The notes: a model not told the origin generated them from the sequence alone. A DNA stretch of 64,000 nucleotides from Candidatus Poribacteria bacterium (GCA_012270795.1 JAAXHO010000059.1:3375-67374); one strand, 5' to 3'; positions 46,528 through 63,459 are shown, numbered from the stretch's first letter. Numbers and translations are program-made.

Positions 46528-49032
46528 ATGAACCAAGAATCTGGTAGAATAGCCAATGTAACGGAAATGTTTTTGCCTGTTATTGCATTACCAACAGAAT
46601 TTGATATTTTTTATCCAAGGACGAAAGTTATTTTTGATAACAATTTAGTAGATTGGGCACCGTTGTATATCAAGCGTAAAATGGGTATACTTGCTGCGCG
46701 CGCGGCACTTGAATCAGATTCTAAAATTTTGCTCCTCCACCAAATAAGGGAACTTGAGGAAGAAGTTGAACCGACTGCAGAAGATCTGCATTCTGTTGGA
46801 GTAGTTGCGAACATTATCCAAGACGTTGATCCGAAGAATGGAACACTTCGGATTGCAATTGAGACGGTAGCAAGAGCAAATGTTGTCAACTGTGTACAAG
46901 TTGATGGTTACTTAAAGGCAGAAGTCAAAATCGTTCCTGAACATCGGGGTGTCTCTGAGGCTGCTGCAAGACTTGTTAGTTCAACCAAAGGTGCATTCCG
47001 TAATCTGATAAAAATAATACCCAATTATAGTTTTCCGGATGTTGAAAAATCCAGGCGGTTGATTCCTGATATAGAGAGACACATTCGTGAAATCGTAGAA
47101 CCCGGTGTTCTTGCAGACAATATTGCCCGTTTTGTCAAGTTTCCTGCTGATAGACGTTTAGAGATACTTACAGAACTCAACCCTATCAAACGTCTAAATT
47201 TAGTCAAGGTACTTCTTGAAGCAGAGCTTGAGTTACTTGATCTTGATGAAGAAATTCAGAGTGAGGTAAGTAACTCTGTGAAGAAAGCGCATCAAGAATT
47301 CCGTCTACAGGAAGAGATGAAGGTTATTCAAAGAAAACTTGGACGTGGTGATGAGGTTGATGAAATAGATGACCTGCGTGAACAGGTCAAAAATGCTGGT
47401 ATGACAGAGGAAGCAGAGAAAAAAGCCTTGAAAGAGCTTGACAGACTCGCGCAAATACCACCGATGTCGGCAGAATCGGGAGTAATTCGCAATTATGTTG
47501 ACTGGTTGCTCGCTGTGCCGTGGAAAGAACGCACCGAAAATACGATTGAACTTGAAGAAGCTGAGAAGATTTTAGACGAAGATCATTACGGGTTAGATAA
47601 ACCGAAAACAAATGTATTAGAATACCTTGCAGTACTAAAACTGGTTGAACAGGTCAAAGGTCCTATTCTGTGTTTAGTCGGTCCACCGGGTGTTGGTAAG
47701 ACCTCATTAGGTAAATCTATCGCGCGGGCTACAGGTAGAAAGTTTGTTCGTATGTCTCTCGGTGGTGTGCGTGATGAAGCGGAGATACGTGGACATCGTC
47801 GTACGTATATCGGTGCAATACCCGGACGTATCATTCAAGGTTTGCGTGATGTGCAAACGAAAAACCCGCTTTTCCTGCTTGATGAAATTGACAAACTCAG
47901 TTCCGATTGGCGTGGTGACCCCGCCTCTGCCCTTCTTGAAGTGCTTGACCCCGAACAGAACGAAACGTTCCGAGACCACTATTTGGATGTTGAGTTTGAT
48001 CTTTCGGACGTTATGTTCGTTACGACTGCAAATACGCGTATTACGATTCCGCCTGCCCTTGAAGACCGTATGGAAGTAATAGAAATTCCAGGTTATACCG
48101 ATTTTGAGAAACACAAAATCGCGACATTTCATCCGAACGGTTTGATTCCAAAGCAGCTGAAAAGCCATGGGCTCAAAGAAGATAATATAATATTTGATGA
48201 TTCAGCTATATATGACATCGTGAATAAATACACACGTGAAGCTGGTGTAAGAAGTTTGGAACGGAGCATTACGGGGGTTTGCAGGAAAATTGCAAAACAG
48301 ATTGTCTCTGAAGATACGCCAGATATGAAGGTTAAGGTTACGCCGCTGAACTTAAGTGATTATCTCGGACCGCCTAAATGGACTCGCACAAAAGCACAGG
48401 AACGCGATGAGGTCGGTGTTTCAACAGGAATGGTCTGGACGCAGGTCGGTGGGGATATCGTCTCTGTTGAAGCCACCCTGATGCCCGGTGAAGGTAAGTT
48501 GGATATGACAGGACAACTCAAAGAGGTGATGCGTGAATCTGTGCAGACTGCCGTAGCATACCTGCGTTCACGTGCATCACACTATGACATCTCTAAAGAC
48601 ATTTTTGAGAAAAATGACATTCATATCCATATTCCTGAAGGGGCAGTACCTAAGGATGGTCCTTCTGCGGGTATCACTGTAGCAACGGCTATTCTCAGCG
48701 CGATAACAGGGAAAAAGGTCCGTAAGGATGTGGCGATGACTGGTGAAATTACGTTACGGGGACATGTGCTTCCAATTGGTGGGCTCAAAGAAAAAGCACT
48801 TGCAGCCTATCGGAATGGGATCGTTGACATCATCATGCCAGACGAAAATGAAAAAGACCTCGCAGATGTCCCGAATGAAATCCGAGAGAACATTAACTGG
48901 CATCAGGTTACAGATATAACAGAGGTATTGGAATTAGCATTAAAAACTGATGATGAGCCTGAAGTTATCACGCCAGCCACTGAAGATGTCGCCTTACAGA
49001 ATCCTGATGTTTTGGGGCAGACAGGAAACTAA
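46528..49032 (+). CDS. lon: Lon protease
   Basis: LAN domain, AAA+ domain (GPPGVGKTS), and the protease Ser-Lys dyad (DGPSAGIT ... K). Confidence 0.95.
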
Positions 49033-49156
49033 CGCATGATTATTAAAGGAGTGTTTGTGTGAAGTAAATTCCAGAAAAACGCGGTTTCTGACTCAACCAA
49101 GGGCAACTCAATTTTTAATGGTGAGACTCAGCAAACCAAGTTAATAGAAAAAAACA

Positions 49157-49884
49157 ATGAAAATTTGTATTGAAAACCTTGCGACTTTATTTTTAAAAGC
49201 ATCTATTCTACTCAATGGTTGTTTCTACTCAATGGTTGTTCAGGTTGTGAAGAAAGAGAAAAAGAAACAGCGCAAGGTGAACGCTTTCACAACGACCTGT
49301 TACATCAAGATCATGATCACCATAGTAATGTGAAAACTAAGGTACCCGAAGCCCGGAAGGCGATACCTTTTTCAAGTCGATCGTTTTTCCTAAAACACCC
49401 CGCTATCGACCGCATGGACATTTCAGATACCGAAAAGACCCATTTCCAGTGCCAGAATTTGTTCAAGAATATCCAGACCACTTTACTGTAGATGAGAAAG
49501 GTTTCTGGCATGTTAGACTTCCTGCCGAAAAATCCGATAAATTAAATCATATTCCCGGAGAACTTACTAGTGAAACCTTTGACAGCAACACCTGTACAAC
49601 CGATCGTAATATCACTACCTCCCGCCCCTGTTTGGAGTGATATACCGGATCCATACAACCTGACTGTTGGTGATAGTTTTAGTTTAGATTTGAGTAGTTA
49701 TGTGACAGGGAGGCCGACGATAACCAGAAATGGTGGTATCCTGCCAGCAGGATTGCCCTTTATTAATGGCATTTTGAGCGGCAAAGTGACAACAGTTGAG
49801 ACTCGTGGTATACGATTTACAGCAACTAATGCAGCAGGCGCCACACTAAGCGAATGGGTGAATTTCACCATTCAGTCTGATTAA
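49157..49884 (+). pseudogene. degraded lipoprotein gene with a C-terminal putative-Ig (dystroglycan/cadherin-like) domain, disrupted by a 17 bp tandem duplication and further frameshifts
   Basis: ATG 49157 encodes MKICIENLATLFLKASILLNGC (signal peptide plus lipobox). A 17 bp direct duplication (TCTACTCAATGGTTGTT x2 at about 49207-49240) breaks the frame. Three successive overlapping ORFs then follow in different frames. The last carries the motif DLSSYVTG...GILPAGL...FTATNAAGAT. Confidence 0.35.
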
Positions 49885-49967
49885 CGATTTGACATTACTT
49901 ATAGCAGCTTTAGCTATTATGCACAATCAAACTTTTAGTTCAGATTTGAAGTTTCAATTCTTACTTT

Positions 49968-50030
49968 TTGTGAATTATTGAAATAATTATAAACTATTTC
50001 TAGTAGGAATGATCTCCGAATCGTGACTAA
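49968..50030. repeat. degenerate family A-like repeat terminus (TTGTGAATTATTGAAATAATTATA...TAGTAGGAATGATCTCCGAATCGTGAC) upstream of pstS
   Basis: Shares a 21-mer with 56381-56404 and, in reverse complement, with 59777-59797. Confidence 0.6.
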
Positions 50031-50049
50031 ACATAATTGAGGAAAATTC

Positions 50050-50973
50050 ATGATAAGAAGTCAACTAAAGAGTCTTGGTGTTATCATTATTCTTGCTATA
50101 GTTTTATACGGTTTTACCGTCTTCAGCGGCACATCGAATAAAAATTCGGGGAACGATGTGACTATTGGAGATGCACACACAAAAATAAAAAACAAGGGTT
50201 CTGACACGATGGTAAATTTGGCGCAGGCTTGGGCAGAAGCATATAGAGGTGTATCCGATACTGTGTCAGTTGAAGTATCCGGTGGTGGTTCAGGGACAGG
50301 TGTCGCTGCGTTGATCAATGGAACGGTTGATATTGCTAACTGCAGCCGTCAAGTGAAAGCAGAGGAAAAACAGAAAGCATTAGAAAACACAGGTAAAGAA
50401 CCCAAAGAATTTATCGTTGGGTACGATGCACTTGCAGTTTATGTCCACAAAGATAACCCCTTGAGTAATATTACCATTCCGCAACTTGCAGAAATATATG
50501 GTGAGTCAGGGACTATAAACAAATGGGATCAACTCGGTATAGCAAATTCTGGATGTCAGAGTGACAAAATTATCCGCATTAGTCGTCAATCAAACTCGGG
50601 TACTTACTTCTATTTTAGAGAAGCACTACTCGGCAAAGAACGTGACTTTGAACTCGGTTCCTTAGATTTACACGGTTCTAAAGATGTTGTGAAAGTTATT
50701 GGTCGCACCCCTTGCGCGATCGGTTATAGTGGTATGGGATATGCAACGGATCATGTCAAAATGGTAAAGGTGGCTAAAGGACAAGGTGAACCTTACTACG
50801 CACCGAACCTTGAGAATGTCATTGCCAAGACATATCCAATTGCACGTCCTTTGTATATGTATTCTCTCGGAGAACCTACAGGGGAAGCGAAAGAATATCT
50901 TGACTGGATTTTCTCTGCAGAGGGACAGAAGATCGTTGAAGAACTTGGATTTGTGCCTTTATCTTCCAACTAA
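50050..50973 (+). CDS. pstS: phosphate ABC transporter substrate-binding protein
   Basis: Signal/TM segment followed by a PstS-like PBP fold (SGGGSGTG). Confidence 0.9.
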   Translation: MIRSQLKSLGVIIILAIVLYGFTVFSGTSNKNSGNDVTIGDAHTKIKNKGSDTMVNLAQAWAEAYRGVSDTVSVEVSGGGSGTGVAALINGTVDIANCSRQVKAEEKQKALENTGKEPKEFIVGYDALAVYVHKDNPLSNITIPQLAEIYGESGTINKWDQLGIANSGCQSDKIIRISRQSNSGTYFYFREALLGKERDFELGSLDLHGSKDVVKVIGRTPCAIGYSGMGYATDHVKMVKVAKGQGEPYYAPNLENVIAKTYPIARPLYMYSLGEPTGEAKEYLDWIFSAEGQKIVEELGFVPLSSN

Positions 50974-50991
50974 AGGAATTTACAGTAAAAT

Positions 50992-52269
50992 ATGAAATTT
51001 TTACGTATCTGTTTTTCGTTCAAAGGTAGAATCAACAGAGCAGCTTGGTGGTTGCTGAATTTACCAATATGTGTTATCTTTGCAGTATCCATTTTTATAT
51101 TTGATTCTCACACCCAAATAACAATTGGAACTATTCCATTATTAATTCTTGTTTGGATACATTTAGCAGTATCTGCAAAACGTTGGCATGACAAAAATAT
51201 ACCTACTTTTTGGGTACTATTTCACTTTGTCCCACTCATTATTACAATAATTCTTTTTGCATCACCTTTATTTGCTGGTTCTTGGATATTTTTCCATCTG
51301 ATTAACATTGTTTTATTGATAAATGTGTTTTGGCTAATCTATGAATTGGGTTTTGTTAAAGGGGCTGAAGGTAGCAACCAGTTTGGACCGGATTCAGAAA
51401 CCTCCTCTGAATCTGTAATTGATGTATACATCAGTTTATGTGGCATTAGTTCTATTATTTTTGTATTCGGTATCTTCTTTTTCGTGTTTAAAGAGGGGGC
51501 AGGTTTCCTCTTTAGTGGATTAGATATTTGGGAGTTCCTAACAAGTGAAGAGTGGTATCCGACATCTCTTAACAATAAGAGATACGGCACTTTTGCATTA
51601 ATTCTGGGCACATTCAGTGTAACCGCATTAGCCATGTTAATCGCTGTTCCATTTGGACTCGGTGCAGCGATCTTTGTTTCAGAATTCTGCAGTCCTAAGT
51701 TGAAAGAAGTCTTCAAAATCGTAATTGAATTTCTGGCTGCGATACCCTCAGTCGTATGGGGTTTTATCGGTTTAACGTTGATGAATCAGATGATCATTAA
51801 AGTATTTAACGCACCTATTGGTCTAACGATGCTAAACGGGGGTATAATGCTGGCATTGATGAGCGTACCAATCATCGTCTCTATTGCAGAAGATGCGCTC
51901 AAGGCGGTTCCAGATTCCTACCGTGAAGCGGCGGAGGCACTCGGTGCTACCCGGTGGCAGGTAATTTATCGCGTGCTTTTACCTGCAGCGAAAAATGGGT
52001 TGTTGGCAGCGGTTTTACTCGGTGCTGCACGATCCATAGGTGAAACAATGGCGGTACTGATGGCAACAGGACACTCAGTTAACATACCATTAGGACCGCT
52101 TAATTGGATACGCACGCTTACGGCGACTATCGCAGCAGAATTGGGTGAAGTCGCCAGAGGTGATGAGCATTACCAAGTCCTGTTTATTATCGGAGTTCTT
52201 CTTTTTACAATTACCTTTATTGTGAACCTTATTGCTGACTTAGTTATTAAGGGGATTCGACAAAGTTAA
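50992..52269 (+). CDS. pstC: phosphate ABC transporter permease PstC fused to an N-terminal DUF805-like membrane domain
   Basis: The N-terminal roughly 160 aa carry the DUF805-type motif FSFKGRINRAAWW plus TM helices. The C-terminal 265 aa form a PstC core (EAA loop region present). Confidence 0.85.
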   Translation: MKFLRICFSFKGRINRAAWWLLNLPICVIFAVSIFIFDSHTQITIGTIPLLILVWIHLAVSAKRWHDKNIPTFWVLFHFVPLIITIILFASPLFAGSWIFFHLINIVLLINVFWLIYELGFVKGAEGSNQFGPDSETSSESVIDVYISLCGISSIIFVFGIFFFVFKEGAGFLFSGLDIWEFLTSEEWYPTSLNNKRYGTFALILGTFSVTALAMLIAVPFGLGAAIFVSEFCSPKLKEVFKIVIEFLAAIPSVVWGFIGLTLMNQMIIKVFNAPIGLTMLNGGIMLALMSVPIIVSIAEDALKAVPDSYREAAEALGATRWQVIYRVLLPAAKNGLLAAVLLGAARSIGETMAVLMATGHSVNIPLGPLNWIRTLTATIAAELGEVARGDEHYQVLFIIGVLLFTITFIVNLIADLVIKGIRQS

Positions 52270-52290
52270 CACTTGCTATTATAGGAAAAT

Positions 52291-53208
52291 ATGAATAACA
52301 ACACAGAGATTACAGCAGAGAAAATGTTTACGGAAACAGACATCGGACGCAGGAACCGTTTAATAGAAAACGTATTTAAAGTATTCTTTTTTATAATGAC
52401 CTGCTTGATGATTCTACCGTTACTATTAATCATCGGCTACCTTTTCTACAAAGCACTGCCTGTTCTGTCCTTAGACTTTCTATTTAAAAATCCTGAAGAC
52501 AACATGCGGGCTGGCGGGTTATGGGCTCCCTTCCTTGGAACAATCTATCTGGTTGTCGTTTCGTTGTTGGTAGCAGCACCGATAGGGGTTTTCTCTGCAG
52601 TGTATCTCAACGAATATGCGCGTGAAAACTGGTTCACACGTATCGTCAACTTAGCTGTCGTGAACCTTGCAGGTGTGCCAAGTATTGTGCATGCCCTATT
52701 CGGGGTAGGTGCATTTGTGTTGTTTGCGGGTTTAGGGGAGTCAATTCTGGCTGCGTCTCTCACATTAGCAATTATGACGTTGCCCGTTATTATCGCAAGT
52801 ACAACCGAAGCACTCAAAGCAGTACCGATGTCTTTCCGTGAGGCATGTTGGAATCTTGGGGCGACGCGTTGGCAAACAATCAGACGCATCGTGTTACCCA
52901 ATTCAATTAGTGGTATTTTAACAGGGGTTATCTTACAAGTATCACGCGCAGCAGGTGAAACTGCACCGATAATGTTCACAGGGGCAGTTTTCTATAAAGC
53001 TATTGCGGAAGGAGACATTTTTGCATATAATATAATAGACCAGTGTATGGCACTATCATTACATCTCTATACGATATCTACACAGGTGCCTGATGTGACA
53101 GAAGGCATACCCTACGGAACAGCTATTGTGCTTGTAGGAAGTGTGCTGCTTGTGAACGCAGCGGCAATTGTATTACGGGTATATCTTAGAACGCGCAAGA
53201 GGTGGTAA
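52291..53208 (+). CDS. pstA: phosphate ABC transporter permease PstA
   Basis: Six TM helices and the PstA-like EAA loop (EACWNLGATRWQ). Confidence 0.9.
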   Translation: MNNNTEITAEKMFTETDIGRRNRLIENVFKVFFFIMTCLMILPLLLIIGYLFYKALPVLSLDFLFKNPEDNMRAGGLWAPFLGTIYLVVVSLLVAAPIGVFSAVYLNEYARENWFTRIVNLAVVNLAGVPSIVHALFGVGAFVLFAGLGESILAASLTLAIMTLPVIIASTTEALKAVPMSFREACWNLGATRWQTIRRIVLPNSISGILTGVILQVSRAAGETAPIMFTGAVFYKAIAEGDIFAYNIIDQCMALSLHLYTISTQVPDVTEGIPYGTAIVLVGSVLLVNAAAIVLRVYLRTRKRW

Positions 53209-53300
53209 CCTTTCGGTTATAGGTTAGATGGGGTGCAAATGCCTGGCATCCTCTAATTCCTACAGAGAATATATATCCCACCGAAACGGTGTAAAATAGG

Positions 53301-54059
53301 ATGATACCCATGTTGAATGATGTAAATGAAAGACAATCTAACCTGCAGAAAAAATTAGGAGAAATAATTGAAGGACCTGTCTTTAGTGGGATCATACAAT
53401 TTCTGATCCTTGCTTCAGCAGTTGCTTTCGTACTGGAAACCGAAGAAGTTCTTAGAAATAAATATAGAATTTATTTTACAATTGTTGATTGGACGTTTTT
53501 TGCACTTTTTACAGTAGAATATATACTACGTATTTACGCCGCACCGGTTAAAAGAGAATTCATATTTAGTTTCTTTGGGATTATTGATCTACTTGCAATT
53601 TTACCATCTCTCGTGCTGATACCTGGGTTTCGTGTGCTTCGTGTTCTCAGATTCTTACGGATCTTCAGAATCTTTAAAGCCACACGATTCATCTTAGCAG
53701 TGGATAGAATGATTGAGGCATTAGCTGAAGTCAAAAGGGAACTCCTGGCACTTGTAATTTTATCCTCCTTATTTGTTTACTTAGCTGCTTGTGGTATTTG
53801 GTACTTTGAGAGAGAAAAACAGCCAATAGAGTTTGGTTCTATACCAGATGCAATGTGGTGGGCAATTGTAACGTTAACAACAATAGGTTATGGTGATGTT
53901 TATCCGAAAACTCCTGGTGGCAAAATTTTCACTGCTATAGTTGCATTAGTCGGTGTCGGACTTATCGCAATTCCATCTGGGTTGTTAGCATCTGTTTTGA
54001 CTGAAGCACGGGTGGAAGAAGAACTACAAGAAGATGAGGAGGAAGAAGATGAAAAATAA
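53301..54059 (+). CDS. voltage-gated K+ channel (6TM, Kv-like)
   Basis: S4 voltage sensor RVLRVLRFLRIFRIFKATRF and selectivity filter TTIGYGDV. Confidence 0.8.
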   Translation: MIPMLNDVNERQSNLQKKLGEIIEGPVFSGIIQFLILASAVAFVLETEEVLRNKYRIYFTIVDWTFFALFTVEYILRIYAAPVKREFIFSFFGIIDLLAILPSLVLIPGFRVLRVLRFLRIFRIFKATRFILAVDRMIEALAEVKRELLALVILSSLFVYLAACGIWYFEREKQPIEFGSIPDAMWWAIVTLTTIGYGDVYPKTPGGKIFTAIVALVGVGLIAIPSGLLASVLTEARVEEELQEDEEEEDEK

Positions 54060-54369
54060 TACTGGAATAATGCGAAAATGCTTAGTAGTTATAGTCCTAC
54101 TGTTAGTATTAGTTTTCTTTTTAGCTGCGGGTCTTTACTTTTCTGAAATAAATAGTGAACCTGAGACATTCAGTTCATTTTTTGATGCGTTGTATTTTAG
54201 CTTCCTTTCACTATTTACAGTCGGTTATTCAGATATGGGATATATGACGACGGGTGGACAACTCTTTACAATGTTAACTGCTGGAGTTGGCTACATAATT
54301 GGAATAGCATGCTTAATCTGGATAGTATTAGGAACAATAAGATTAGGATCATATTTGAGAAAAACATAG
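54049..54369 (+). CDS. small 2TM K+ channel pore-like protein
   Basis: AGGAGG RBS 6 nt upstream of ATG 54049, overlapping the end of the Kv gene. Two TM helices flank a pore-like TVGYSD motif. Confidence 0.5.
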   Translation: MKNNTGIMRKCLVVIVLLLVLVFFLAAGLYFSEINSEPETFSSFFDALYFSFLSLFTVGYSDMGYMTTGGQLFTMLTAGVGYIIGIACLIWIVLGTIRLGSYLRKT

Positions 54370-54395
54370 GTGAAATTTAGAGAAGCGAGGCTTAT

Positions 54396-55151
54396 GTGAA
54401 AAACAAAATTGAGATTTCCGATCTGAAGGTCTATTATGGAGAAAAACCCGCACTCAATGGAATTTCCTTTGATGTCCACGAAAACGAAATCCTTGGCATC
54501 ATCGGTCCAGCGCAGTCGGGGAAAACGACGTTATTAAAAGTCATCAATCGAACGTTGGAATTTACTCAAGACATTTCCGTTCAGGGATCGGTAATGTTAG
54601 ATGGTGTTGACATCTATTCAATTGGTGATGTATATGCGTTACGAAAACAAATAGGAATGGTGCTGCCTTTGCCTGTGGGGTTGCCTTTGTCTATCTATGA
54701 TAATGTTGCATTTGCTCCGAGAACGTCAGGACTTCGAGATAAAGTTGAATTAGATGAAATCGTTGAACGCTGTTTAACACAAGCAGCATTATGGGATGAA
54801 GTCAAAGATCGGTTGGATAGCCTTGGAACAAAACTGTCTGGGGGACAGCAGCAACGTTTGACCATCGCCAGAGCATTGTCACACCAACCAGAAATACTTT
54901 GTCTTGACGAGTTTTCTATCGCTGTTGACCCTATAACTACAATGCGTATTGAGGATGTCCTCAAGGACCTAAAAAACGAGATGACAATTCTACTTGTTAC
55001 GAATTTGGTTCAGCAAGCAAAACGTTTGGCAAATCGTACCGCTTTTATGCTAAACGGTGATCTGATTGAAATAGACGAAACAGATGTAATTTTTTCTGAT
55101 AATCCAGGACAAGAATCTACCTATGACTATGTAAATGGAAACTTCGGATAG
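54396..55151 (+). CDS. PstB-like ABC ATPase paralog 1 with a degenerate H-loop
   Basis: Walker A GPAQSGKT, signature LSGGQQQR, Walker B LCLDEFS, and an H-loop with Asn in place of His (VTNLVQQAKR). Confidence 0.8.
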   Translation: MKNKIEISDLKVYYGEKPALNGISFDVHENEILGIIGPAQSGKTTLLKVINRTLEFTQDISVQGSVMLDGVDIYSIGDVYALRKQIGMVLPLPVGLPLSIYDNVAFAPRTSGLRDKVELDEIVERCLTQAALWDEVKDRLDSLGTKLSGGQQQRLTIARALSHQPEILCLDEFSIAVDPITTMRIEDVLKDLKNEMTILLVTNLVQQAKRLANRTAFMLNGDLIEIDETDVIFSDNPGQESTYDYVNGNFG

Positions 55152-55185
55152 TGCGAGTGAATTTTAAAGTGAATCTTATACCATT

Positions 55186-55324
55186 TCTATATAATAATCT
55201 TACATTATATCGTAGGTCGGGTAGAGTTTGCGAAACCCGACAGGAACGAAACGTGTCGGGTTTCGCAAACTCTACCCGACCTACAATATGTAATGGCAAT
55301 TTGTCAATTAGAAATGGTATTATT
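55186..55324. mobile_element. MITE-like element with family A termini and a family D palindromic core (CGTAGGTCGGGTAGAGTTTGCGAAACCCGAC...GTCGGGTTTCGCAAACTCTACCCGACCTAC)
   Basis: Termini TTATACCATTTCTA / TCAATTAGAAATGGTATTATT. Core 55212-55284. Confidence 0.8.
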
Positions 55325-55360
55325 AACTATTGAACCTTAACCAACAAAAGGAAGGAAACA

Positions 55361-56326
55361 GTGAAACTTTGCATAAAGAACCTAACATTTTTACTGATAT
55401 TTTCAATACCTATTTTTGGTGGGTGTTTAGGATATGGACAGAAGACAATTACAGATAAACCTATAATCTCTGACGAAAAGCAAAATAAGACAAATCCCAA
55501 ACAACGCGGAAAGACGGCAAAGTTATCTCCCGAGCAGTTTACAGATTTGGAATACCGTGCCACGCTCAAAGGGGTCGAATATATTGAAATCTCACGCGAA
55601 GATGTAGTGGGTGTCCCTTATCCGTGGAACCCAATCGTTGTTCCTCTTGAGTGGTGGGAAAAGCACGTGGAAAAATTAGATGAATTGCGTATAGCCCGAA
55701 GACAAAAGACGATAACGGATGAAGAATATGAGGCGAAAATCCTTCAAATTCTTCGTGAATATGGTCTTGTTGCATACGCGCAGTTAGGCATTGAACTCAA
55801 TGGTGGATCCGTTCGTCGCACAGATAGGTATTTAGTGAACCTTGCGTATGCTGAGGATCCTGATGATTTCAACATCTTGCTAATGTGGGTGGTTGCAGGT
55901 GGGGATTCTTATGATCCTACTTATGGCATAGAAAGGACCGCAGCAACGCGGCGTTTATATGAAATGAACCCGGATCACCCGTGGGTTCTGCACTACCTTG
56001 CCAAATGTCTTTTGGGATGTAATCCACAAGAGGCACTCGGTTATGCACAAAAGGCACAAGAATTAGACCCAATTTATCTGCTTTACGGTGTAGAGGGTTT
56101 GTGTTACTTCCAAATGGGTGATTTCGATAAGGCATTAGAAGCGTTTAAACGCTCACAGAAGGCAGCGGTTGCAACCTCAAATCTTTGCATAGCTTGCATA
56201 GCAAGAGCTATCTCTGAATGGAAAGGTAAAGCCATTAGCCGTGTTAACAGTGATCTCTTTGATAGCTATAGAAAGGCAGGAAAACCGATACTCGGTCCTG
56301 ACTTACCAATGCCACTAAGACATTAG
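55361..56326 (+). CDS. hypothetical lipoprotein with TPR-like helical repeats
   Basis: Signal peptide plus lipobox IFGGC. The C-terminal half is helical-repeat-like. Confidence 0.55.
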   Translation: MKLCIKNLTFLLIFSIPIFGGCLGYGQKTITDKPIISDEKQNKTNPKQRGKTAKLSPEQFTDLEYRATLKGVEYIEISREDVVGVPYPWNPIVVPLEWWEKHVEKLDELRIARRQKTITDEEYEAKILQILREYGLVAYAQLGIELNGGSVRRTDRYLVNLAYAEDPDDFNILLMWVVAGGDSYDPTYGIERTAATRRLYEMNPDHPWVLHYLAKCLLGCNPQEALGYAQKAQELDPIYLLYGVEGLCYFQMGDFDKALEAFKRSQKAAVATSNLCIACIARAISEWKGKAISRVNSDLFDSYRKAGKPILGPDLPMPLRH

Positions 56327-56380
56327 ATTCAGTTAGTCTTATATTTTCTACGAATTATTCTACAAGATTAGGGTTATTTA

Positions 56381-56450
56381 TGGTGAATTATTGAAATAAT
56401 TATACACCTCTTCTGTAGGAGCGACCTTTGGTCGTGACCGTTCGGTATGG
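56381..56450. repeat. family A-like repeat fragment (TGGTGAATTATTGAAATAATTATACACCTCTTCTGTAGGAGCGACCTTTGGTCGTGACCG)
   Basis: Same terminus type as 49968-50030 and 59760-59800. The palindrome half is GTAGGAGCGACC. Confidence 0.7.
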
Positions 56451-56547
56451 TAAATTGTAGAAATGTGAACTAATTTCGAACTTCACCATAATGATTAAAT
56501 AGACACATCACAAAACGGTATGGGTAGAGAAAAGAGGAGTACATTAC

Positions 56548-57321
56548 TTGGAAACGAACAACCACAGCATTGAAACAAAGAATCTTAACCTTTGGTATGG
56601 TGATTTTCAAGCACTCATGGATGTGAGTGTGAATATACCGGCTGGGAAAATAACAGCACTTATAGGACCTTCTGGATGCGGGAAAACGACACTTCTACGC
56701 TGTTTTAACCGAGTGAATGAACGTTACGGAAACGTCACGACAAAAGGTGAGATAAAGATATTAGGGAAGAATATCTATGATCCCGATGTCTCATTGCTGG
56801 AATTACGAAAAACTGTGGGTATGGTGTTTCAACGACCAAACCCATTACCGATTTCAGTCTACGAGAACATCCTATTTGGTCTACGGATACACTCACCATT
56901 TGGGAGTTTAACGCGAAACCAAGCAGATGAGATCGTAGAAGAAGCACTCACCTCCGTTTTTCTTTGGGACGACTTAAAAGATAAACTAAAAGTACGTGCA
57001 ACTTCATTGCAGCTGGAGCAACAACAGAAACTCTGTATCGCACGTTTGCTACCACTAAAACCGCAGATCATCTTGATGGATGAACCGTGTTCTGCCCTTG
57101 ACGCAAAAGGCACTTTGGCAGTTGAAGAATTAATGGGAATACTTGCTGGGAAATATACATTCTTGATAGTGACCCATAATATGGCACAAGCGCGTCGCGT
57201 AAGTACTGAGTGTATTTACATGTTTCTTGGCGAACTGATAGAACATAGGGAGACACAAGCCCTCTTTGAAACCCCTGACCATCCAAAAACTGCAGACTAT
57301 GTGCAGATGCGTTACGGTTAG
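56548..57321 (+). CDS. pstB: phosphate ABC transporter ATP-binding protein PstB (canonical copy)
   Basis: TTG start. Walker A GPSGCGKTT, Walker B ILMDEPCSALD and H-loop VTHNMAQARR. Confidence 0.9.
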   Translation: METNNHSIETKNLNLWYGDFQALMDVSVNIPAGKITALIGPSGCGKTTLLRCFNRVNERYGNVTTKGEIKILGKNIYDPDVSLLELRKTVGMVFQRPNPLPISVYENILFGLRIHSPFGSLTRNQADEIVEEALTSVFLWDDLKDKLKVRATSLQLEQQQKLCIARLLPLKPQIILMDEPCSALDAKGTLAVEELMGILAGKYTFLIVTHNMAQARRVSTECIYMFLGELIEHRETQALFETPDHPKTADYVQMRYG

Positions 57322-57418
57322 ATTGTTAGAACAGCGCGTTTCAAGGTGTTCGATTCAGTAGACTACATAAGAAAGCCTGTCGGGAGATAGGCATTTCTCA
57401 TAAAGGAATGCTCAAACC

Positions 57419-58135
57419 ATGAACAGGTCAGAACTGATTATTCAAATCATAGCATTAGCAACATTGATAATTGCATGCGTTCTTGTATGGATTTTAACAA
57501 CGGAAGTGTTTCATGTTGAAGGGGATATACTGTCCGTACCGATGGACTTAGATTCTGAATCTGATCTAATTGATCGTCTCTACAGAATGATTCCGCTTTT
57601 ATGTGTGGCAATGTTGTTAAGCATTGCTTTTGCATTTTACATAGAAGAATGGTTATCAGAAACGACTTGGTATTACCGCATAATTAATCAGCATATCTCA
57701 ATCTTGGCGAACATACCTTCCCTAATATACGGGATATTAGTGGTTTGTATTTTCTTGTTTCAGGTTGGGAAATTTTCGAATTTCACACTTGTTTTGGCAA
57801 TCGTTTTCCTTGTTGTCCCCGTTACAATTCAAACTACACAGAGTGCAATTCGAGGTGTAGATTTATCTGTTCGGGAAGCGGCGTATGCACTGGGTGCTAA
57901 CAGATGGCAAGTGATTACCGACCACGTTTTTCCACGTGCATTTCCTAAAATTACTGGAGGTGTTTTCACTGTAATATCACGTGTTCTCGCGATCGCTGTT
58001 TTACTCATCATTGTTTGCGAATTAAGGACTTCAATTATACAAGATGTTGGTTCTTATGAGATTTCAAGTAACGTTTTCGTTCTAATATCGTTAGCACTGT
58101 TATCATGTGTTCTTTCAAGTTTTCTTCAAAAATAG
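57419..58135 (+). CDS. short PstA/PstC-family ABC permease (238 aa)
   Basis: EAA-type loop SAIRGVDLSVREAAYALGANRWQ with about 5 TM helices. Confidence 0.7.
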   Translation: MNRSELIIQIIALATLIIACVLVWILTTEVFHVEGDILSVPMDLDSESDLIDRLYRMIPLLCVAMLLSIAFAFYIEEWLSETTWYYRIINQHISILANIPSLIYGILVVCIFLFQVGKFSNFTLVLAIVFLVVPVTIQTTQSAIRGVDLSVREAAYALGANRWQVITDHVFPRAFPKITGGVFTVISRVLAIAVLLIIVCELRTSIIQDVGSYEISSNVFVLISLALLSCVLSSFLQK

Positions 58136-58196
58136 GAATAGTTAGCGGTTTAAAATCCATTTCTAAACATTAAATAATACCTGAGATCGGTGAAAT

Positions 58197-58967
58197 ATGA
58201 AGACGCAAAAAAAGGCACCAACATTACAGATAAGTGGTTTAAATGTTTGGTATGGGGAGAATCATATTTTAAAGGATCTGACTTTTGATGTCTTACCCAG
58301 ACAAGTTACAGCATTTATCGGACCTTCAAACAGTGGTAAGACTGCTTTAGTGAGATGTTTCAACCGATTAAATGATTTTACATCCAACTTCAAACTTACC
58401 GGTGAGATTATATTTAATAGTAAGGATATTTATTCACCGAAAACAAAAGGTTCTGATATAGCGAAACAGATTGGGATGGTATTTCAACACCCAATTTTGT
58501 TCAGAAAATCTATTTATGAAAACGTTGCTTATGGTGCAAGACTTCAAAGTATAAGACCGTCCGTAGAACAATATACCATCGTTGAAGAATGTCTAAAAAA
58601 GGCACAACTTTGGCATGAGGTATGTGACGATCTACAATCTTCGCCTGATATTCTGTCTAACGGTCAGAAACAAAGGCTCTGTGTTGCACGAGCTTTAGCA
58701 GCAGATCCGGAACTTTTGATATTTGACGAACCTTGCGATCAATTAGATGCTACAGAAACTCCGAAATTAGAGGCAATAGTTCTATCTCTTAAACGGCAAT
58801 ATCCTATTATCTTTGTAACCAACAAGAGACGGCAAGCTGCTCGCGTCTCTGATGTCGCAGGCTTCCTCTATTGTGGTGAATTGGTCGAATTTGGACAAAC
58901 TGAACAGATATTTACTAACCCAAAAGACAAACGCACTGAGGACTATGTAACTGGTAGATTAGGATAA
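58197..58967 (+). CDS. PstB-like ABC ATPase paralog 3 with degenerate signature and H-loop
   Basis: Walker A GPSNSGKT, signature LSNGQKQR, Walker B LIFDEPCDQLD and H-loop VTNKRRQAARV. Confidence 0.8.
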   Translation: MKTQKKAPTLQISGLNVWYGENHILKDLTFDVLPRQVTAFIGPSNSGKTALVRCFNRLNDFTSNFKLTGEIIFNSKDIYSPKTKGSDIAKQIGMVFQHPILFRKSIYENVAYGARLQSIRPSVEQYTIVEECLKKAQLWHEVCDDLQSSPDILSNGQKQRLCVARALAADPELLIFDEPCDQLDATETPKLEAIVLSLKRQYPIIFVTNKRRQAARVSDVAGFLYCGELVEFGQTEQIFTNPKDKRTEDYVTGRLG

Positions 58968-58988
58968 CCAAGGTTTTTACCGGTCAGA

Positions 58989-59654
58989 ATGATGCAACAT
59001 TATCTTGAAACAGAACTCAAAGCACTTCAACACCAACTATTAAAAATGGGGGGTATTGCTGAAACTATGTTCCGTGATGCTGTTCAATCGGTGTTAAATC
59101 GCGACGAAGAACTTGCACGACGCGTTATTGCTGTTGATGATACAGTTGATAAACTTGAAAATGATATTGAAGCGAGATGCATTCAACTCATTGCCCGTCA
59201 CCAACCCGTTGCTTTTGAATTGCGATATTTGGTGATGGCACAAAAGGTAAACAGGAATATAGAAAGGTTGGCAGATAAATGCGTTTCAATTGCCAGACGT
59301 AGTATAGAACTGATTTCATACCCTCCAATGCCATCCATAGTTGATCTTCCGTCTGCAACACAATTAATTCAAGAAATGGTCAATGATGCCTTTGATGCGC
59401 TGGTAAATCGAAATGCAGAACTTGCAAAAAAACTCAGAGAACGCGATATCAAAGTCAACGAAACATATCAACAGATGGTAGATGAACTTTATCTGCTATT
59501 GTCCGATCAACCGCAACTCATACAACCGGGTTTTAGTCTGCTTATACTATTTAGACATTTGGAACGTATAGGTGACCTCGCTGCGAATATCGGAGAAGAG
59601 GTGTATTATCTTGTCAAAGGTGAGGTAATTAGACATACTATCATTGAACAATAA
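58989..59654 (+). CDS. phoU: phosphate signalling complex protein PhoU
   Basis: Two PhoU repeats (E..D..VD and RIGD motifs). Confidence 0.9.
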   Translation: MMQHYLETELKALQHQLLKMGGIAETMFRDAVQSVLNRDEELARRVIAVDDTVDKLENDIEARCIQLIARHQPVAFELRYLVMAQKVNRNIERLADKCVSIARRSIELISYPPMPSIVDLPSATQLIQEMVNDAFDALVNRNAELAKKLRERDIKVNETYQQMVDELYLLLSDQPQLIQPGFSLLILFRHLERIGDLAANIGEEVYYLVKGEVIRHTIIEQ

Positions 59655-59800
59655 ATAATACCATTTCTAATTGATAATTTCTCATAAGTTGTGAGGAACT
59701 GGTAGGAGCGACCTGCTGGTCGCTCCTACTGAAGATGCCGCACGATCGCGACCAGAGGTCGCTCCTACTGAGGAGAGGTATAATTATTTCAATAATCCAC
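59654..59800. mobile_element. family A MITE-like element variant (left terminus AATAATACCATTTCTAATTGA, split palindrome core 59701-59769, right terminus ...GGTATAATTATTTCAATAATCCACC)
   Basis: The core repeats GGTAGGAGCGACC...GGTCGCTCCTAC twice. Its right end is the reverse complement of the 49968 and 56381 termini. Confidence 0.75.
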
Positions 59801-59811
59801 CATATATGTAA

Positions 59812-61017
59812 TTAGTTTTCTGTTGGGAAGAAATGCACATCTCTTTGTGGGAATGGGATTTTGATGCCGTATTCCTTAAATTTATCCCATATCATAAAGT
59901 GAAGGTCACTTGCTACGTCGAAACGCATAAAAGAATCCGGGATCCACGCTAACAATTCAAAATCTAAGGACGATTCCCCAAAGTTAATAAACCGAACCAA
60001 CGGGGGTGCGACAAACTCCATCTCTGATGTTGGTTCTTTAATAACTTCAGGGTGTGCATGTGCTACCTCAAGCAGTATTTCTTTGACACGTTGTACGTCC
60101 GAACCATACGACACCCCTACTTGAACGCGAACCCGGAAACGAGCGTTATAATGCGTCAGGTTATGAACCGGTTCTGTAATCAATTGAGAATTCGGGACAA
60201 TAATCTCCTTTTCATCAAGTGCCATAATCACTGTTGAACGCAGATTGATGCTGGTTACTCTACCAAAAATGTTCACGTCTATGATTTCTACCAAATCCCC
60301 GATTTTGATGGGGCGTTCAAAAATTAGAATAAGTCCCGAAATTAGATTTGATACCACATTTTGTAACCCGAACCCGATACCGATACTCAAACCACCGAAA
60401 ATCAACGCCATGCTTGTGAGACTGATACCAAGTGTACTGAGACTTATTAACACCCCAATTGTAATTAAACTGAAATGAATGACCCGCAGAATGATGAATT
60501 GGGTATGTCTTTCAATTTGAAAAGCTTGTAAAACTTGTCGCCTAAGTATAAACTGGACGTACTTTGACAGGATAAATATACCAAAGATAATGACAAATCC
60601 GTAAAAGAGTTTAGCAATTGTTAATTTGCCACCTTCTTCTGGGACCTTCGTATCGGTGGCTCCTTCACCAGTATCAGATTCAACGGGTGTTTTTGTGGTT
60701 TGGAATAAGTCTGTGAGTGGATAATGAAAAATAGTGTCAAATAATTCCGAACTTATGTTAGCAACGTTGAACCCGACCCCGATACCTATTACCATAACAA
60801 TCAGGAACATAATCGCAAGTATACGATTTTGAATATGGTCCTGTAATCTTAAGCGATTAAAGAGTTTGCGTAACCAGCGGCGCAGGAATTCTGCAACAAA
60901 AAAGGAAATGACCAATACTCCGATAAGTTTAAGTATTTGCCCGTAAGTAACATCCTTTTCCAACCGTATTGCAGTTTTTTTAAGAAACTCTTCTATTTGT
61001 TCAAATAAATCATTCAT
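59812..61017 (-). CDS. mechanosensitive ion channel (MscS family)
   Basis: TM region followed by a conserved MscS beta domain (GDLVEIIDVNIFGRVTSINLRSTVI). Confidence 0.85.
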   Translation of the reverse strand: MNDLFEQIEEFLKKTAIRLEKDVTYGQILKLIGVLVISFFVAEFLRRWLRKLFNRLRLQDHIQNRILAIMFLIVMVIGIGVGFNVANISSELFDTIFHYPLTDLFQTTKTPVESDTGEGATDTKVPEEGGKLTIAKLFYGFVIIFGIFILSKYVQFILRRQVLQAFQIERHTQFIILRVIHFSLITIGVLISLSTLGISLTSMALIFGGLSIGIGFGLQNVVSNLISGLILIFERPIKIGDLVEIIDVNIFGRVTSINLRSTVIMALDEKEIIVPNSQLITEPVHNLTHYNARFRVRVQVGVSYGSDVQRVKEILLEVAHAHPEVIKEPTSEMEFVAPPLVRFINFGESSLDFELLAWIPDSFMRFDVASDLHFMIWDKFKEYGIKIPFPQRDVHFFPTEN

Positions 61018-61173: not shown

Positions 61174-63459
61174 TTAATCTATTGAGATCTGTTCAATTGA
61201 GTGGACAAATAAAACATCGTTTACGCCTTGGTACCGCTGTAACTCTTGTTCTAAGTTTCCTGAAGTAATATCTTCTGCTGTTAACCCAACGATAACCAAA
61301 TCTGCTTGTGCGGATCTCTGTGTAACTTCTTGTTCCAATGTTTCATAGTTGTCGTAAGAAACCGATGTTACATTTTGCATTGAGATAGGGAGTCTACCTC
61401 CTTTGATGACTGTTGCCAGTTTATCTGCATCAAGTTCGGTTTCCCAAGAGTCTGAACAAGCAAACAGACGAATTTTGGCACGTTTCCACTCTGGGTGACC
61501 AACTAATATATAAGCGAGTAACAACATCATAGGTACATTGCTAATGTTAGGATCATTTACCCAAACATGAATTGATGAACGATAACCAAAACGGTATTTT
61601 GTGGAACGTAGAATCAAAACGTTAAATAATGATTCTACAGCAAGCAGCGTGCCCTGTTTCACCTCCCCAATTTCTTCAGGATGGTTTTTGTCAAATTCCA
61701 GTAGGATCGAGTTGTTAGGTAAACCAGAGATTCCTGGCATCTGGAGTACGTGTGATAAAGCAAGTTGGAAAGATGGACAGATAAGTGAATCTACAAAAAT
61801 TCCTGCTTTACTTGCTTCAGTTTGCTGGATGAGTGCATCAACATGAATACGTGCGGATATTTCCTCTGGAAAGGAGTAATCTCCTGGGAAAAACTGAATG
61901 AAGTGTCCAAATCCGTGTCTGTGGCATAACCACCGTAGCAAATCAAAATGTCCCAGACGGCATTCTCCAAATTGTGTAATTGCAACAATTGAAGGTCGCC
62001 ACCCACTTTCTGATAGATTAACCCTGTTTTTCTGCAAAGTTGTTTGCAACCATCGGGTTAATTGAAACATTGCTCCTTGAAAAATTGCTGACATCCCCCG
62101 CTGTTCGCTGCTTCCCTGCCGAAGACCGATATAAACTGCTATCATAAGAACTATGGAGACTATTGCAAAAAATAGGTGTATCTGAATCATCATCAAACCA
62201 CACATGACGGTACCTAACAGTGATACATACCAGCGGGAATGGAAGGTTGGTCGGTACGATGGGTTTCCAGCGAAATGCTCAAGAAAGGAGACAACACAGA
62301 GTGCACCATAAGTTACTAAGAAGAACATTGTAAGAATTTGCGCGATAAAGTTGAGTTCGCCAATTGCAACAAATACGACCGCAATTATACCAGAGACAAA
62401 CGTTGCTGGAATTGGCTCCTGACTTTTTCCAACACCTGTCTGCATCAGACGGTTCAAAGCAGGTATCGGTAGGACATTGTCCTTTGCAAGAGCTTGAAGT
62501 GTTCTCGGTGCTACCATGATGGAACCGAGTGCCGATGAAAAAGACGCAGCACCCAACCCTATATAAATTGCTGAAGGCCATATTGAGATCTTTGCCATAA
62601 TGATTTCATCCACATTTGCAAGTTGTTCAGGGGGTGCGCTTTGAAACAGTTTGACCGCAACAAGGAGGTATATAACCAGACCGGCAAGTGTTGCACCGAT
62701 GGTACCAAGTGGTATACTGCGTTGAGGGTTCCTCAAATCACCAGATAGGCCTAAACCTGCAATCATACCGGTAAATGCAGGAAAACATATAGCAAAGACT
62801 TTACCGAAAGAATCACCATCAGCTATGCCTTGGGTAATTCGCATGCTGTCAGGGTCCATTACACCAGTCGGTTTTCCCATAAAAAAAGTCGCGAGTGACA
62901 CAGCAAGTAATCCACAGATTAACCACAACAATGAAACCCCCATATCTGCGCCCTTGGTTAACATGATTAAAATAAGTATAATAGTGCCTGGAACACTTAA
63001 CCATCGGAGATCAATGGGACCTTCAATTCTATCATAATAGGCAACAATCCATTCAAATACAGGCCCAAACGCTTGAGCAAATGCCACCATATAGAATGCT
63101 ATAGATATTGCTTGAGAAATATATAGGGCGATTCCGATTGTCCCCCCGATGCTGGTGCCGAAGGACCGACTAACAATATAATATGCTCCTCCGCCTGCAA
63201 CACGGCGGTTTGTCGCAACTTCTGAGACAGCCAAAACTGTTGGGATTGTTACGAGATGTCCGATCAAAACAATGGCGATACTTTTCAGTAATCCCACATG
63301 CCCAACGGCATATCCGAAACGTAGGAAAAGAATCGCGCCAAGTATAGTACTTATAGATGCAAGAAATACAGGGGCGGTGCCAAAACCGTGTCCATGTTGT
63401 TGAACAATATTATTGTCCTCGAATCTTGATCTGTTTCGTTGTCCAAAGTTAAAACGCAT
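61174..63459 (-). CDS. APC-superfamily permease of the SLC12 (cation-chloride cotransporter)-like type with a C-terminal cytoplasmic domain
   Basis: Twelve TM helices with SLC12/AA_permease-like motifs, plus a roughly 300 aa C-terminal domain. Confidence 0.75.
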   Translation of the reverse strand: MRFNFGQRNRSRFEDNNIVQQHGHGFGTAPVFLASISTILGAILFLRFGYAVGHVGLLKSIAIVLIGHLVTIPTVLAVSEVATNRRVAGGGAYYIVSRSFGTSIGGTIGIALYISQAISIAFYMVAFAQAFGPVFEWIVAYYDRIEGPIDLRWLSVPGTIILILIMLTKGADMGVSLLWLICGLLAVSLATFFMGKPTGVMDPDSMRITQGIADGDSFGKVFAICFPAFTGMIAGLGLSGDLRNPQRSIPLGTIGATLAGLVIYLLVAVKLFQSAPPEQLANVDEIIMAKISIWPSAIYIGLGAASFSSALGSIMVAPRTLQALAKDNVLPIPALNRLMQTGVGKSQEPIPATFVSGIIAVVFVAIGELNFIAQILTMFFLVTYGALCVVSFLEHFAGNPSYRPTFHSRWYVSLLGTVMCGLMMIQIHLFFAIVSIVLMIAVYIGLRQGSSEQRGMSAIFQGAMFQLTRWLQTTLQKNRVNLSESGWRPSIVAITQFGECRLGHFDLLRWLCHRHGFGHFIQFFPGDYSFPEEISARIHVDALIQQTEASKAGIFVDSLICPSFQLALSHVLQMPGISGLPNNSILLEFDKNHPEEIGEVKQGTLLAVESLFNVLILRSTKYRFGYRSSIHVWVNDPNISNVPMMLLLAYILVGHPEWKRAKIRLFACSDSWETELDADKLATVIKGGRLPISMQNVTSVSYDNYETLEQEVTQRSAQADLVIVGLTAEDITSGNLEQELQRYQGVNDVLFVHSIEQISID

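Follow-up and report, generated by a model that had tools for sequence, protein, structure and literature searches.

In the PstSCAB complex of Escherichia coli, ATP is bound by Walker motifs A and B of one PstB subunit and the LSGGQ signature of the other, with one PstB placed on PstA and one on PstC (PMC12976172). Heterodimers with a degenerate ATP site are frequent among ATP-binding cassette (ABC) exporters, and a single intact site is enough in HisQMP2 (cited in PMC3971661). RbsA and NupO, sugar and nucleoside importers with fused nucleotide-binding domains (NBDs), have one predicted inactive ATP site each (PMC11466899). Here, we analysed a pst locus with three PstB paralogues (PstB1, PstB2 and PstB3), located at positions 50050-59654 of a 64,000-nucleotide stretch of DNA from a Candidatus Poribacteria bacterium, hereafter called the window. 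The host is a sponge-associated bacterium, and the nearest homologues of the window proteins carry the annotation Candidatus Poribacteria bacterium.

The motifs of PstB1 and PstB2 and their distribution make it very probable that these two proteins are obligate partners in a heterodimer in which only one ATP site is catalytic. We also consider probable, with somewhat more reserve, the whole explanation in two layers, in which this single-site pump is supplemented in Poribacteria by a module built around PstB3. All 11 genes of the locus are on the + strand, and open reading frames (ORFs) were found where an earlier reading of this DNA (the original prediction) had placed them. Those coding for the Pst proteins and PhoU are the following.

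50050-50973, + strand: PstS phosphate-binding protein (TIGR02136, 224 bits, above the cutoff; PF12849)
50992-52269, + strand: PstC permease, fused at its N terminus to a DUF805 domain (TIGR02138, 274 bits over residues 141-420; PF05656)
52291-53208, + strand: PstA permease (TIGR00974, 264 bits)
54396-55151, + strand: PstB1 (TIGR00972, 287.9 bits; alignment to E. coli PstB)
56548-57321, + strand: PstB2 (TIGR00972, 313.4 bits; alignment to E. coli PstB)
57419-58135, + strand: short PstA-like permease of 238 residues, hereafter called sPerm (TIGR00974, 96.6 bits)
58197-58967, + strand: PstB3 (TIGR00972, 294.7 bits; alignment to E. coli PstB)
58989-59654, + strand: PhoU, with two PhoU domains (PF01895, 149 bits)

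The same gene set was obtained from independent gene calls on a public contig that carries identical DNA (ENA ERZ27298222, k141_107398). In all related loci pstS is the first gene of the conserved operon. A scan of positions 49000-60000 for promoters and terminators remained at the level of shuffled sequence (37 versus 31±6 and 11 versus 8±3, respectively) and yielded no usable operon boundaries.

Motifs and distribution of the PstB1/PstB2 pair

The presence of three PstB paralogues, as originally predicted, is supported by the TIGR00972 PstB family being the top NCBIfam match for each of them, although all three score below its curated equivalog cutoff of 343.2 bits. They share the operon with pstS, pstC, pstA and phoU. 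We set the motif positions by aligning the three proteins to E. coli PstB (PDB 9k3x, a structure of the PstSCAB complex), with the following outcome.

Walker A: E. coli GPSGCGKS; PstB1 GPAQSGKT; PstB2 GPSGCGKT; PstB3 GPSNSGKT
Q-loop: E. coli MVFQKP; PstB1 MVLPLP (Gln98 to Pro); PstB2 MVFQRP; PstB3 MVFQHP
Signature: E. coli LSGGQQQR; PstB1 LSGGQQQR; PstB2 LQLEQQQK; PstB3 LSNGQKQR
Walker B and D-loop: E. coli DEPCSALD; PstB1 DEFSIAVD; PstB2 DEPCSALD; PstB3 DEPCDQLD
H-loop: E. coli VTHNMQQ; PstB1 VTNLVQQ (His210 to Asn); PstB2 VTHNMAQ; PstB3 VTNKRRQ (His210 to Asn)

All three proteins share the Lys of Walker A, the Asp-Glu of Walker B, the Asp of the D-loop and an aromatic residue in the A-loop. 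None of them has the full canonical set of ABC motifs: PstB1 is devoid of the Q-loop Gln and the H-loop His, PstB2 of the LSGGQ signature, and PstB3 of the H-loop His and Gly156. Both glycines of the PstB2 signature are gone, and in the window its Ser is missing as well (LQLEQ), the only canonical signature of the locus being that of PstB1.

The original prediction is thus partly revised. The His-to-Asn substitutions that it described in the first and third copies do fall in the true H-loop column of the alignment (His210) and not outside the real H-loop and Walker positions. The GPAQSGKT, DEFS and VTN motifs of the first copy, to which the alignment adds LDEF and IAVD, and the GPSNSGKT, LSNGQKQR and DEPCDQLD motifs of the third are as it reported, but it had overlooked that PstB1 has lost its Q-loop Gln as well. 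Its claim that the middle copy is canonical holds for Walker A, the Q-loop, Walker B, the D-loop and VTHN but fails for the signature: PstB2 has LQLEQQQK, and the LSGGQQQ-type signature attributed to it alone belongs to the first copy. As for the degenerate Walker motifs, the altered residues are real, but the GxxxxGK[ST] pattern still fits, and the Lys and the Walker B Asp-Glu are present in all copies.

The pattern is reciprocal, with non-consensus catalytic motifs in PstB1, a non-consensus signature in PstB2 and a fully consensus opposite site, and it is invariant within each class across phyla. Such reciprocity is the defining trait of the degenerate-site heterodimers among exporters (reviewed in PMC3971661). 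Because the motif losses are complementary, one of the two sites in a PstB1/PstB2 dimer would be consensus and the other degenerate. The sole catalytic site would be composed of the Walker A, Q-loop, Walker B and H-loop motifs of PstB2 and the LSGGQ signature of PstB1. The second would combine the altered PstB1 motifs (Gly46 to Gln, Q-loop Gln to Pro and H-loop His to Asn) with the LQLEQ signature of PstB2. Mutations of the H-loop His eliminate hydrolysis in HlyB, MalK and HisP. The G551D mutation of CFTR, to which we take the Gly157-to-Glu replacement of PstB2 to correspond (second signature Gly to an acidic residue), eliminates ATP-dependent gating. This second site would most likely be hydrolysis-dead, and any role left to it would be that of a nucleotide site with a structural or regulatory function. 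Homodimers are disfavoured, as PstB2/PstB2 would lack a functional signature, and PstB1/PstB1 the Q-loop Gln and the H-loop His, at both sites.

In the proposed mechanism, PstS, PstC, PstA, PstB1 and PstB2 would make up a high-affinity phosphate ABC importer whose nucleotide-binding subunits form an obligate heterodimer, with PstB1 as the non-catalytic and PstB2 as the catalytic partner. Because there would be a single catalytic site, one ATP per cycle would drive transport. A PstB heterodimer with one degenerate site had been proposed from the start, and for the first two copies this idea is well supported, albeit on different grounds, as copy 2 is not fully canonical. On the permease side, PstA has periplasmic loops of full length and keeps the R..GET motif of the phosphate site, and it aligns with residues 42-232 of E. 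coli PstA (9k3x), ARxAGET included. The coupling loop of PstA in PstB1/PstB2-type systems is distinctive (FREACWNxGATRWQ), and comparison of the EAA loops does not assign PstB1 to PstA or to PstC.

We scanned for homologues with PstB1 as the query, using one genome per GTDB species. This yielded 19 loci (numbered L002-L020) at 59-82% identity, with ordinary PstBs abruptly lower, at 50% or less. They are found in Poribacteria, Acidobacteriota (Holophagales and Thermoanaerobaculia), Verrucomicrobiota (Limisphaera), Planctomycetota, Gammaproteobacteria (Chromatiaceae and Accumulibacter), Binatia, Myxococcota (Polyangiaceae) and other groups. The gene order pstS-pstC-pstA-pstB1-pstB2 is present in all of them except L007, a short contig that begins at pstB1. 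The pstB1 and pstB2 genes adjoin each other in all 19 loci, as well as in the additional Poribacteria loci in which both are covered, and their spacing in related loci ranges from an overlap of 4-8 nucleotides to a gap of <150 nucleotides. The original prediction had suggested looking for the paralogue set in relatives, and it does recur there, the PstB1/PstB2 pair in many phyla and the sPerm-PstB3-PhoU set in Poribacteria loci.

Both classes have characteristic motifs across the 19 loci: GPA[QNRT]xGK[ST], V/MVxPLP, LSGGQQQR, LDEF, IA[IV]D and VTN for PstB1, and GPSGCGK[ST], MVFQRP, DEPCSALD (with one residue different in two loci) and VTHNM[AS]Q for PstB2. The PstB2 signature, L[QSLA]LE[QEKA]QQK, is kept in all 18 full-length orthologues examined outside the window, and the PstB1 motifs are identical in the representatives of 120 out of 120 Poribacteria clusters. 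Orthologues of PstB1 and of PstB2 are 56-84% identical across loci, whereas PstB1 and PstB2 share only 31-42% identity. In a neighbour-joining tree of 129 PstBs (100 bootstraps), PstB1, PstB2 and PstB3 are each monophyletic with a bootstrap of 100, and no two of them are sisters (bootstrap 0 for PstB1+PstB2 and 5 for PstB1+PstB3). The single-site design would be an ancient Pst subtype present in many phyla. In a PstB1 search of 50%-identity representatives, the clade collapsed to one full-length representative and fragments, which gives no estimate of abundance.

PstB1 clusters (bootstrap 90) with the degenerate members of three other asymmetric pairs, from Syntrophobacteraceae (L056), Anaerolineae (L068) and Clostridium (L072), whose partners have LSLGQ or LSPGQ signatures. 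Additional classes were found among the 50%-identity representatives, with GPAGAGKT, MVFxVP, LSGGQQQR and LVTNNxKQ motifs and with LSAEQ and LTEEQ signatures. Since PstB1 groups with other degenerate partners and more classes appear, asymmetric PstB pairs seem to be a broad and apparently old phenomenon, and one of the Pst ATP sites may have degenerated repeatedly or by degrees in different bacteria.

The three further pairs lie at L056 9998-11527, L068 4534-6396 and L072 976-5171. One asymmetric class combines a copy with GPAxGGKT, MVFALP and IVPHS motifs and a partner with an LSLGQ signature. In the Clostridium copy, the Walker A Lys is replaced by Ile, and an LDRP motif is present. Proteins P0260, P0317, P0334, P0280 and P0338 are among the examples of other asymmetric classes.

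PstB3, the short permease and PhoU

PstB3 and sPerm were seen only in Poribacteria loci, in every one that covers the region, and no homologue of either was called in the 18 non-Poribacteria PstB1/PstB2 loci. The sPerm-PstB3-PhoU synteny is kept in all eight Poribacteria loci. The order pstS-pstC-pstA-K+ channel-pstB1-pstB2-sPerm-pstB3-phoU is found in L002 and L082-L087, with L086 beginning at pstB2 because of a contig end. The phoU gene is directly 3' of pstB3 in all Poribacteria loci; in a PhoU-PstB signalling complex, PhoU would touch both PstB and the histidine kinase PhoR, and this gene adjacency is what the locus shows of such a complex.

The conservation of PstB3 among 120 Poribacteria clusters is uneven. 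His210 is replaced by Asn in 118 of them, within a new conserved motif, VTNKRRQ. The Gly46 and Gly156 positions are occupied by Gly in none of the 120, and the Q-loop residue is unconstrained, with Arg, Gln, His, Gly and Pro among those found. There is next to no variation at Lys49, Asp178, Glu179 and Asp185, and the signature retains Ser155, Gly157 and Gln158. We looked for co-variation of residues 46, 98 and 156 as a sign of a PstB3 homodimer, and no clean signal emerged beyond phylogenetic structure. In the neighbour-joining analysis, the mean distances to canonical PstBs are 0.93 for PstB3, 0.95 for PstB1 and 0.87 for PstB2, and PstB3 is at ~1.2 from PstB1 and PstB2. Being nearer to canonical PstBs than to PstB1 or PstB2, PstB3 appears to derive from a conventional pstB.

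The extra short permease of the original prediction is indeed present, as a 238-residue PstA-like protein. It matches TIGR00974 (PstA) over profile positions 8-212 of 272, below the cutoff of 193.45, and its top PDB sequence match is E. coli PstA. The named members of its family are all from Poribacteria (~40 clusters, 231-280 residues). In E. coli, the periplasmic gate is formed by transmembrane helix 5 (TM5) and the TM5-TM6 loop, which also touches PstS (PMC12976172). sPerm has kept its EAA coupling loop, which reads RE..YALGA.R, as well as a counterpart of the phosphate-coordinating Arg220. The GET motif, the periplasmic loop between TM1 and TM2 and the TM5 gate are gone, little of the TM5-TM6 loop is left, and only 17 out of 100 PstA-conserved columns survive. 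Its AlphaFold model (pLDDT 75) shows six transmembrane helices; residues 149-157 form a coupling helix, and the TM5-TM6 loop has 8 residues. The top Foldseek matches of this model are E. coli PstC and PstA (9k3y).

Poribacteria would have added a second module, composed of sPerm, PstB3 and PhoU. In this module sPerm would remain able to bind an NBD by way of its coupling helix, the periplasmic elements for PstS docking and gating having been lost, and PstB3 would keep its ATP-binding residues with no H-loop His and with relaxed Q-loop and signature. It may be, and we propose this tentatively, that sPerm and PstB3 form a membrane complex that binds ATP but hydrolyses it poorly and that, together with PhoU, senses or regulates phosphate status and does not import. 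The notion of regulatory pseudo-ATPases coupled to PhoU, initially put forward as an alternative to the heterodimer, is plausible for copy 3 only.

In 13 of the 18 non-Poribacteria PstB1/PstB2 loci, a PhoU-like protein of 350-390 residues is encoded beside pstS, as at L006 5953-7110, L003 6066-7163, L012 6159-7265 and L017 7031-8116. In L006, PhoU is fused to a low-molecular-weight phosphatase (LMWPc) domain, confirmed with Pfam, in whose P-loop (VDERNACRS) the catalytic Cys is replaced by Asp. The L003 protein also has Asp at that position, without the downstream CRS, and the PhoU-like protein of L017 has no Pfam LMWPc match. Such PhoU-LMWPc fusions may be phosphate-sensing pseudo-phosphatases. 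A further possibility, which we regard as rather doubtful, is that Poribacteria have split phosphate transport by PstSCA with PstB1/PstB2 from signalling by a pseudo-transporter, sPerm with a hydrolysis-dead PstB3 whose VTNKRRQ motif would be a new basic patch, that would dock PhoU and report phosphate/ATP status, other phyla having the PstB1/PstB2 pump and a PhoU fused to a dead low-molecular-weight phosphatase sensor.

Alternative explanations, selection and neighbouring genes

Several points weigh against the two-layer explanation. As PstB1 and PstB3 retain the catalytic Glu of Walker B and the Lys of Walker A, they may have residual hydrolysis. The signature Glu of PstB2 might block ATP sandwiching entirely, in which case the degenerate site may be empty and not ATP-locked as in exporters. 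The pstB1 and pstB2 genes are 1.4 kb apart in the window, with a gene for a TPR-repeat protein between them, and no PstB-like sequence besides the three copies was found in the window, to which the search was confined within this genome. With regard to PstB3, the conserved KRR beside the Asn could compensate for the loss of the His, and PstB3 could pair as a homodimer, with PstB2 or with PstB1.

The main rival to a regulatory PstB3 module stems from the pairing with PstB2, and we find it unlikely. PstB3 would be an alternative partner of PstB2, and sPerm would stand in for PstA or PstC; the result would be another single-site complex able to transport, with different kinetics, for instance of low affinity or independent of PstS. 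The catalytic motifs of PstB3 are degenerate like those of PstB1, and the Ser155, Gly157 and Gln158 kept in its signature could allow it to complete the consensus site of PstB2. sPerm has the Arg220 equivalent and the coupling helix, and both genes are directly 3' of pstB2. However, position 156 of PstB3 is never Gly and varies freely, and its Q-loop is unconstrained, in contrast with the invariant signature of PstB1. In addition, sPerm has neither the gate nor the PstS-docking loops and few of the conserved PstA columns, and PstB3 is unrelated to PstB1 in the tree.

In another scenario, which we hold to be quite improbable, the PstBs duplicate one another or serve different conditions, each as an active homodimeric ATPase on the permeases, and the motif changes are tolerated, as proposed for the tandem pstB genes of Firmicutes. 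The residues common to all three copies are in its favour, as is the ability of the surplus PstB2 of Enterococcus faecalis to substitute for PstB1 (PMC12096839). The absence of the signature glycines from PstB2 and of the Q-loop Gln and H-loop His from PstB1 speaks against it, these losses being reciprocal and fixed across phyla, and so does the low identity between the copies here, as the Firmicute copies are ~60% identical and fully canonical.

We calculated ratios of nonsynonymous to synonymous substitution rates (dN/dS) between Poribacteria loci. As dS is saturated for distant pairs (window versus L083 = nan), only the comparisons with L086 and L087 are reliable. With L087, for which dS is unsaturated, the values are as follows.

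PstB1: 0.10
PstB2: 0.03
PstB3: 0.07
sPerm: 0.18
PhoU: 0.04
PstA: 0.03
Small K+ channel ORF: 0.78

The ranges are 0.02-0.10 for PstB1, 0.03-0.04 for PstB2 (the lowest of the three copies), 0.07-0.09 for PstB3, 0.17-0.38 for sPerm and 0.04-0.10 for PhoU. Not one of the pstB copies is in decay. That PstB1 and PstB3 are decaying duplicates or incipient pseudogenes without function, with only PstB2 of importance, is strongly disfavoured and barely credible: key catalytic residues are gone, all three proteins score below the equivalog cutoff and the adjacent small K+ channel ORF looks relaxed, but the dN/dS values of PstB1 and PstB3 are low, the PstB1 motifs are invariant, PstB3 has the new conserved VTNKRRQ motif, and PstB1 provides the only canonical signature of the locus and keeps ~60-70% identity across phyla. 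We rejected the pseudogene reading on the basis of purifying selection and recurrence in independent assemblies. An assembly artefact was rejected on the same basis, and the identity of the PstB1 motifs in 120 of 120 Poribacteria clusters and the PstB3 His-to-Asn change in 118 of 120 exclude chance and sequencing error.

The remaining genes of the locus and those downstream of phoU are the following.

53301-54059, + strand: voltage-gated-type K+ channel (PF00520, PF07885)
54034-54369, + strand: small pore-only K+ channel-like ORF (PF07885)
55361-56326, + strand: TPR-repeat protein (TPR_1 and TPR_2 matches)
59812-61017, - strand: MscS-type mechanosensitive channel, divergent, downstream of phoU
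61174-63459, - strand: SLC12-like amino-acid/cation permease of 761 residues, divergent, downstream of phoU

The voltage-gated-type K+ channel gene (dN/dS 0.09-0.16) lies between pstA and pstB1 in each Poribacteria locus that covers the interval (L002, L082-L085 and L087), and no K+ channel gene was found at that place in the PstB1/PstB2 loci of other phyla. The small pore-only ORF is almost neutral (dN/dS 0.34-0.78), is missing in L002, L084 and L085, and is possibly decaying. The TPR gene is a lineage-specific insertion that splits pstB1 from pstB2, with no TPR gene there in L002, L082-L085 and L087. Residues 7-133 of PstC correspond to the DUF805 membrane domain; this fusion is present in the window, L082, L083, L087 and probably L002 (PstC of 420 residues), and absent from L084, L085 and the non-Poribacteria loci. 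The divergent MscS and SLC12-like genes are kept in Poribacteria loci L082-L087. The presence of K+ channel, MscS and SLC12-like genes in this neighbourhood may point to a connection of the phosphate locus with ion homeostasis. A small ORF between lon and pstS (49570-49884) has a putative Ig (He_PIG) domain, with a marginal score of 23.9 bits against a cutoff of 24.

Comparison with described transport systems

The locus shares PstS, PstC, PstA, PhoU, the R..GET motif in PstA and PstC and the EAA loops with the PstSCAB-PhoU system of E. coli (9k3s, 9k3x, 9k3y; PMC12976172). In E. coli, by contrast, PstB is a homodimer in which both sites are consensus, and neither a third PstB nor an additional permease is present. 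Tandem pstB genes of Firmicutes (PstBA/PstBB of Bacillus subtilis and PstB1/PstB2 of E. faecalis; PMC12096839) are also an adjacent pair in a pst-phoU operon, with non-equivalent roles. They differ in that the two copies are ~60% identical with canonical motifs, whereas PstB1 and PstB2 of Poribacteria are 31-42% identical, have reciprocal motif losses and belong to separate deep clades. In the Bacillales loci L040, L059 and L080, both PstB copies have canonical motifs. RbsA and NupO differ from PstB1/PstB2 in that their NBDs are fused in one polypeptide, they belong to another ABC family with a different transmembrane domain (TMD) architecture, and the Walker A Lys is lost. Our literature search for a degenerate-site Pst system or a PstB heterodimer returned nothing relevant, which is not proof that such systems are undescribed.

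Degenerate ATP sites are regarded as a trait of ABC exporters, and PstB1/PstB2, if our reading is true, extends it to a phosphate importer. The number of ATP molecules used per importer cycle is still disputed, largely from engineered mutants such as those of HisP and MalK. A natural and widespread single-site Pst would offer a test system for the sufficiency of one hydrolysis event and would allow the role of the silent site and the assignment of each NBD to PstA or PstC to be addressed. Proteins annotated merely as 'phosphate ABC transporter ATP-binding protein' include some that are not equivalent to PstB, which affects what is inferred about metabolism and the Pho regulon in Poribacteria, Accumulibacter and other groups. 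PstB3, sPerm and PhoU may also show a separation of PhoU-type signalling from transport.

The heterodimeric exporters (TM287/288, TmrAB, BmrCD, PatAB, TAP1/2 and CFTR), like PstB1/PstB2, have two different NBDs with one site non-consensus on both faces. In both cases the opposite site is fully canonical, and the acidic residue in place of the second signature Gly is shared with CFTR G551D. The Walker B Glu is kept in the degenerate Pst subunit, PstB1, whereas it is usually lost in exporters. Exporters are type IV transporters with fused TMD-NBD, whereas PstB1/PstB2 are free NBD subunits of a type I binding-protein-dependent importer. The type IV fused half-transporter architecture is absent here, the NBDs being encoded by separate genes and the TMDs being BPD_transp_1 type I importer permeases; the likeness is therefore one of functional analogy and not of membership. 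We infer that PstB1/PstB2 are part of a type I importer of phosphate that operates in the manner of a degenerate-site heterodimer and lies outside the exporter families.

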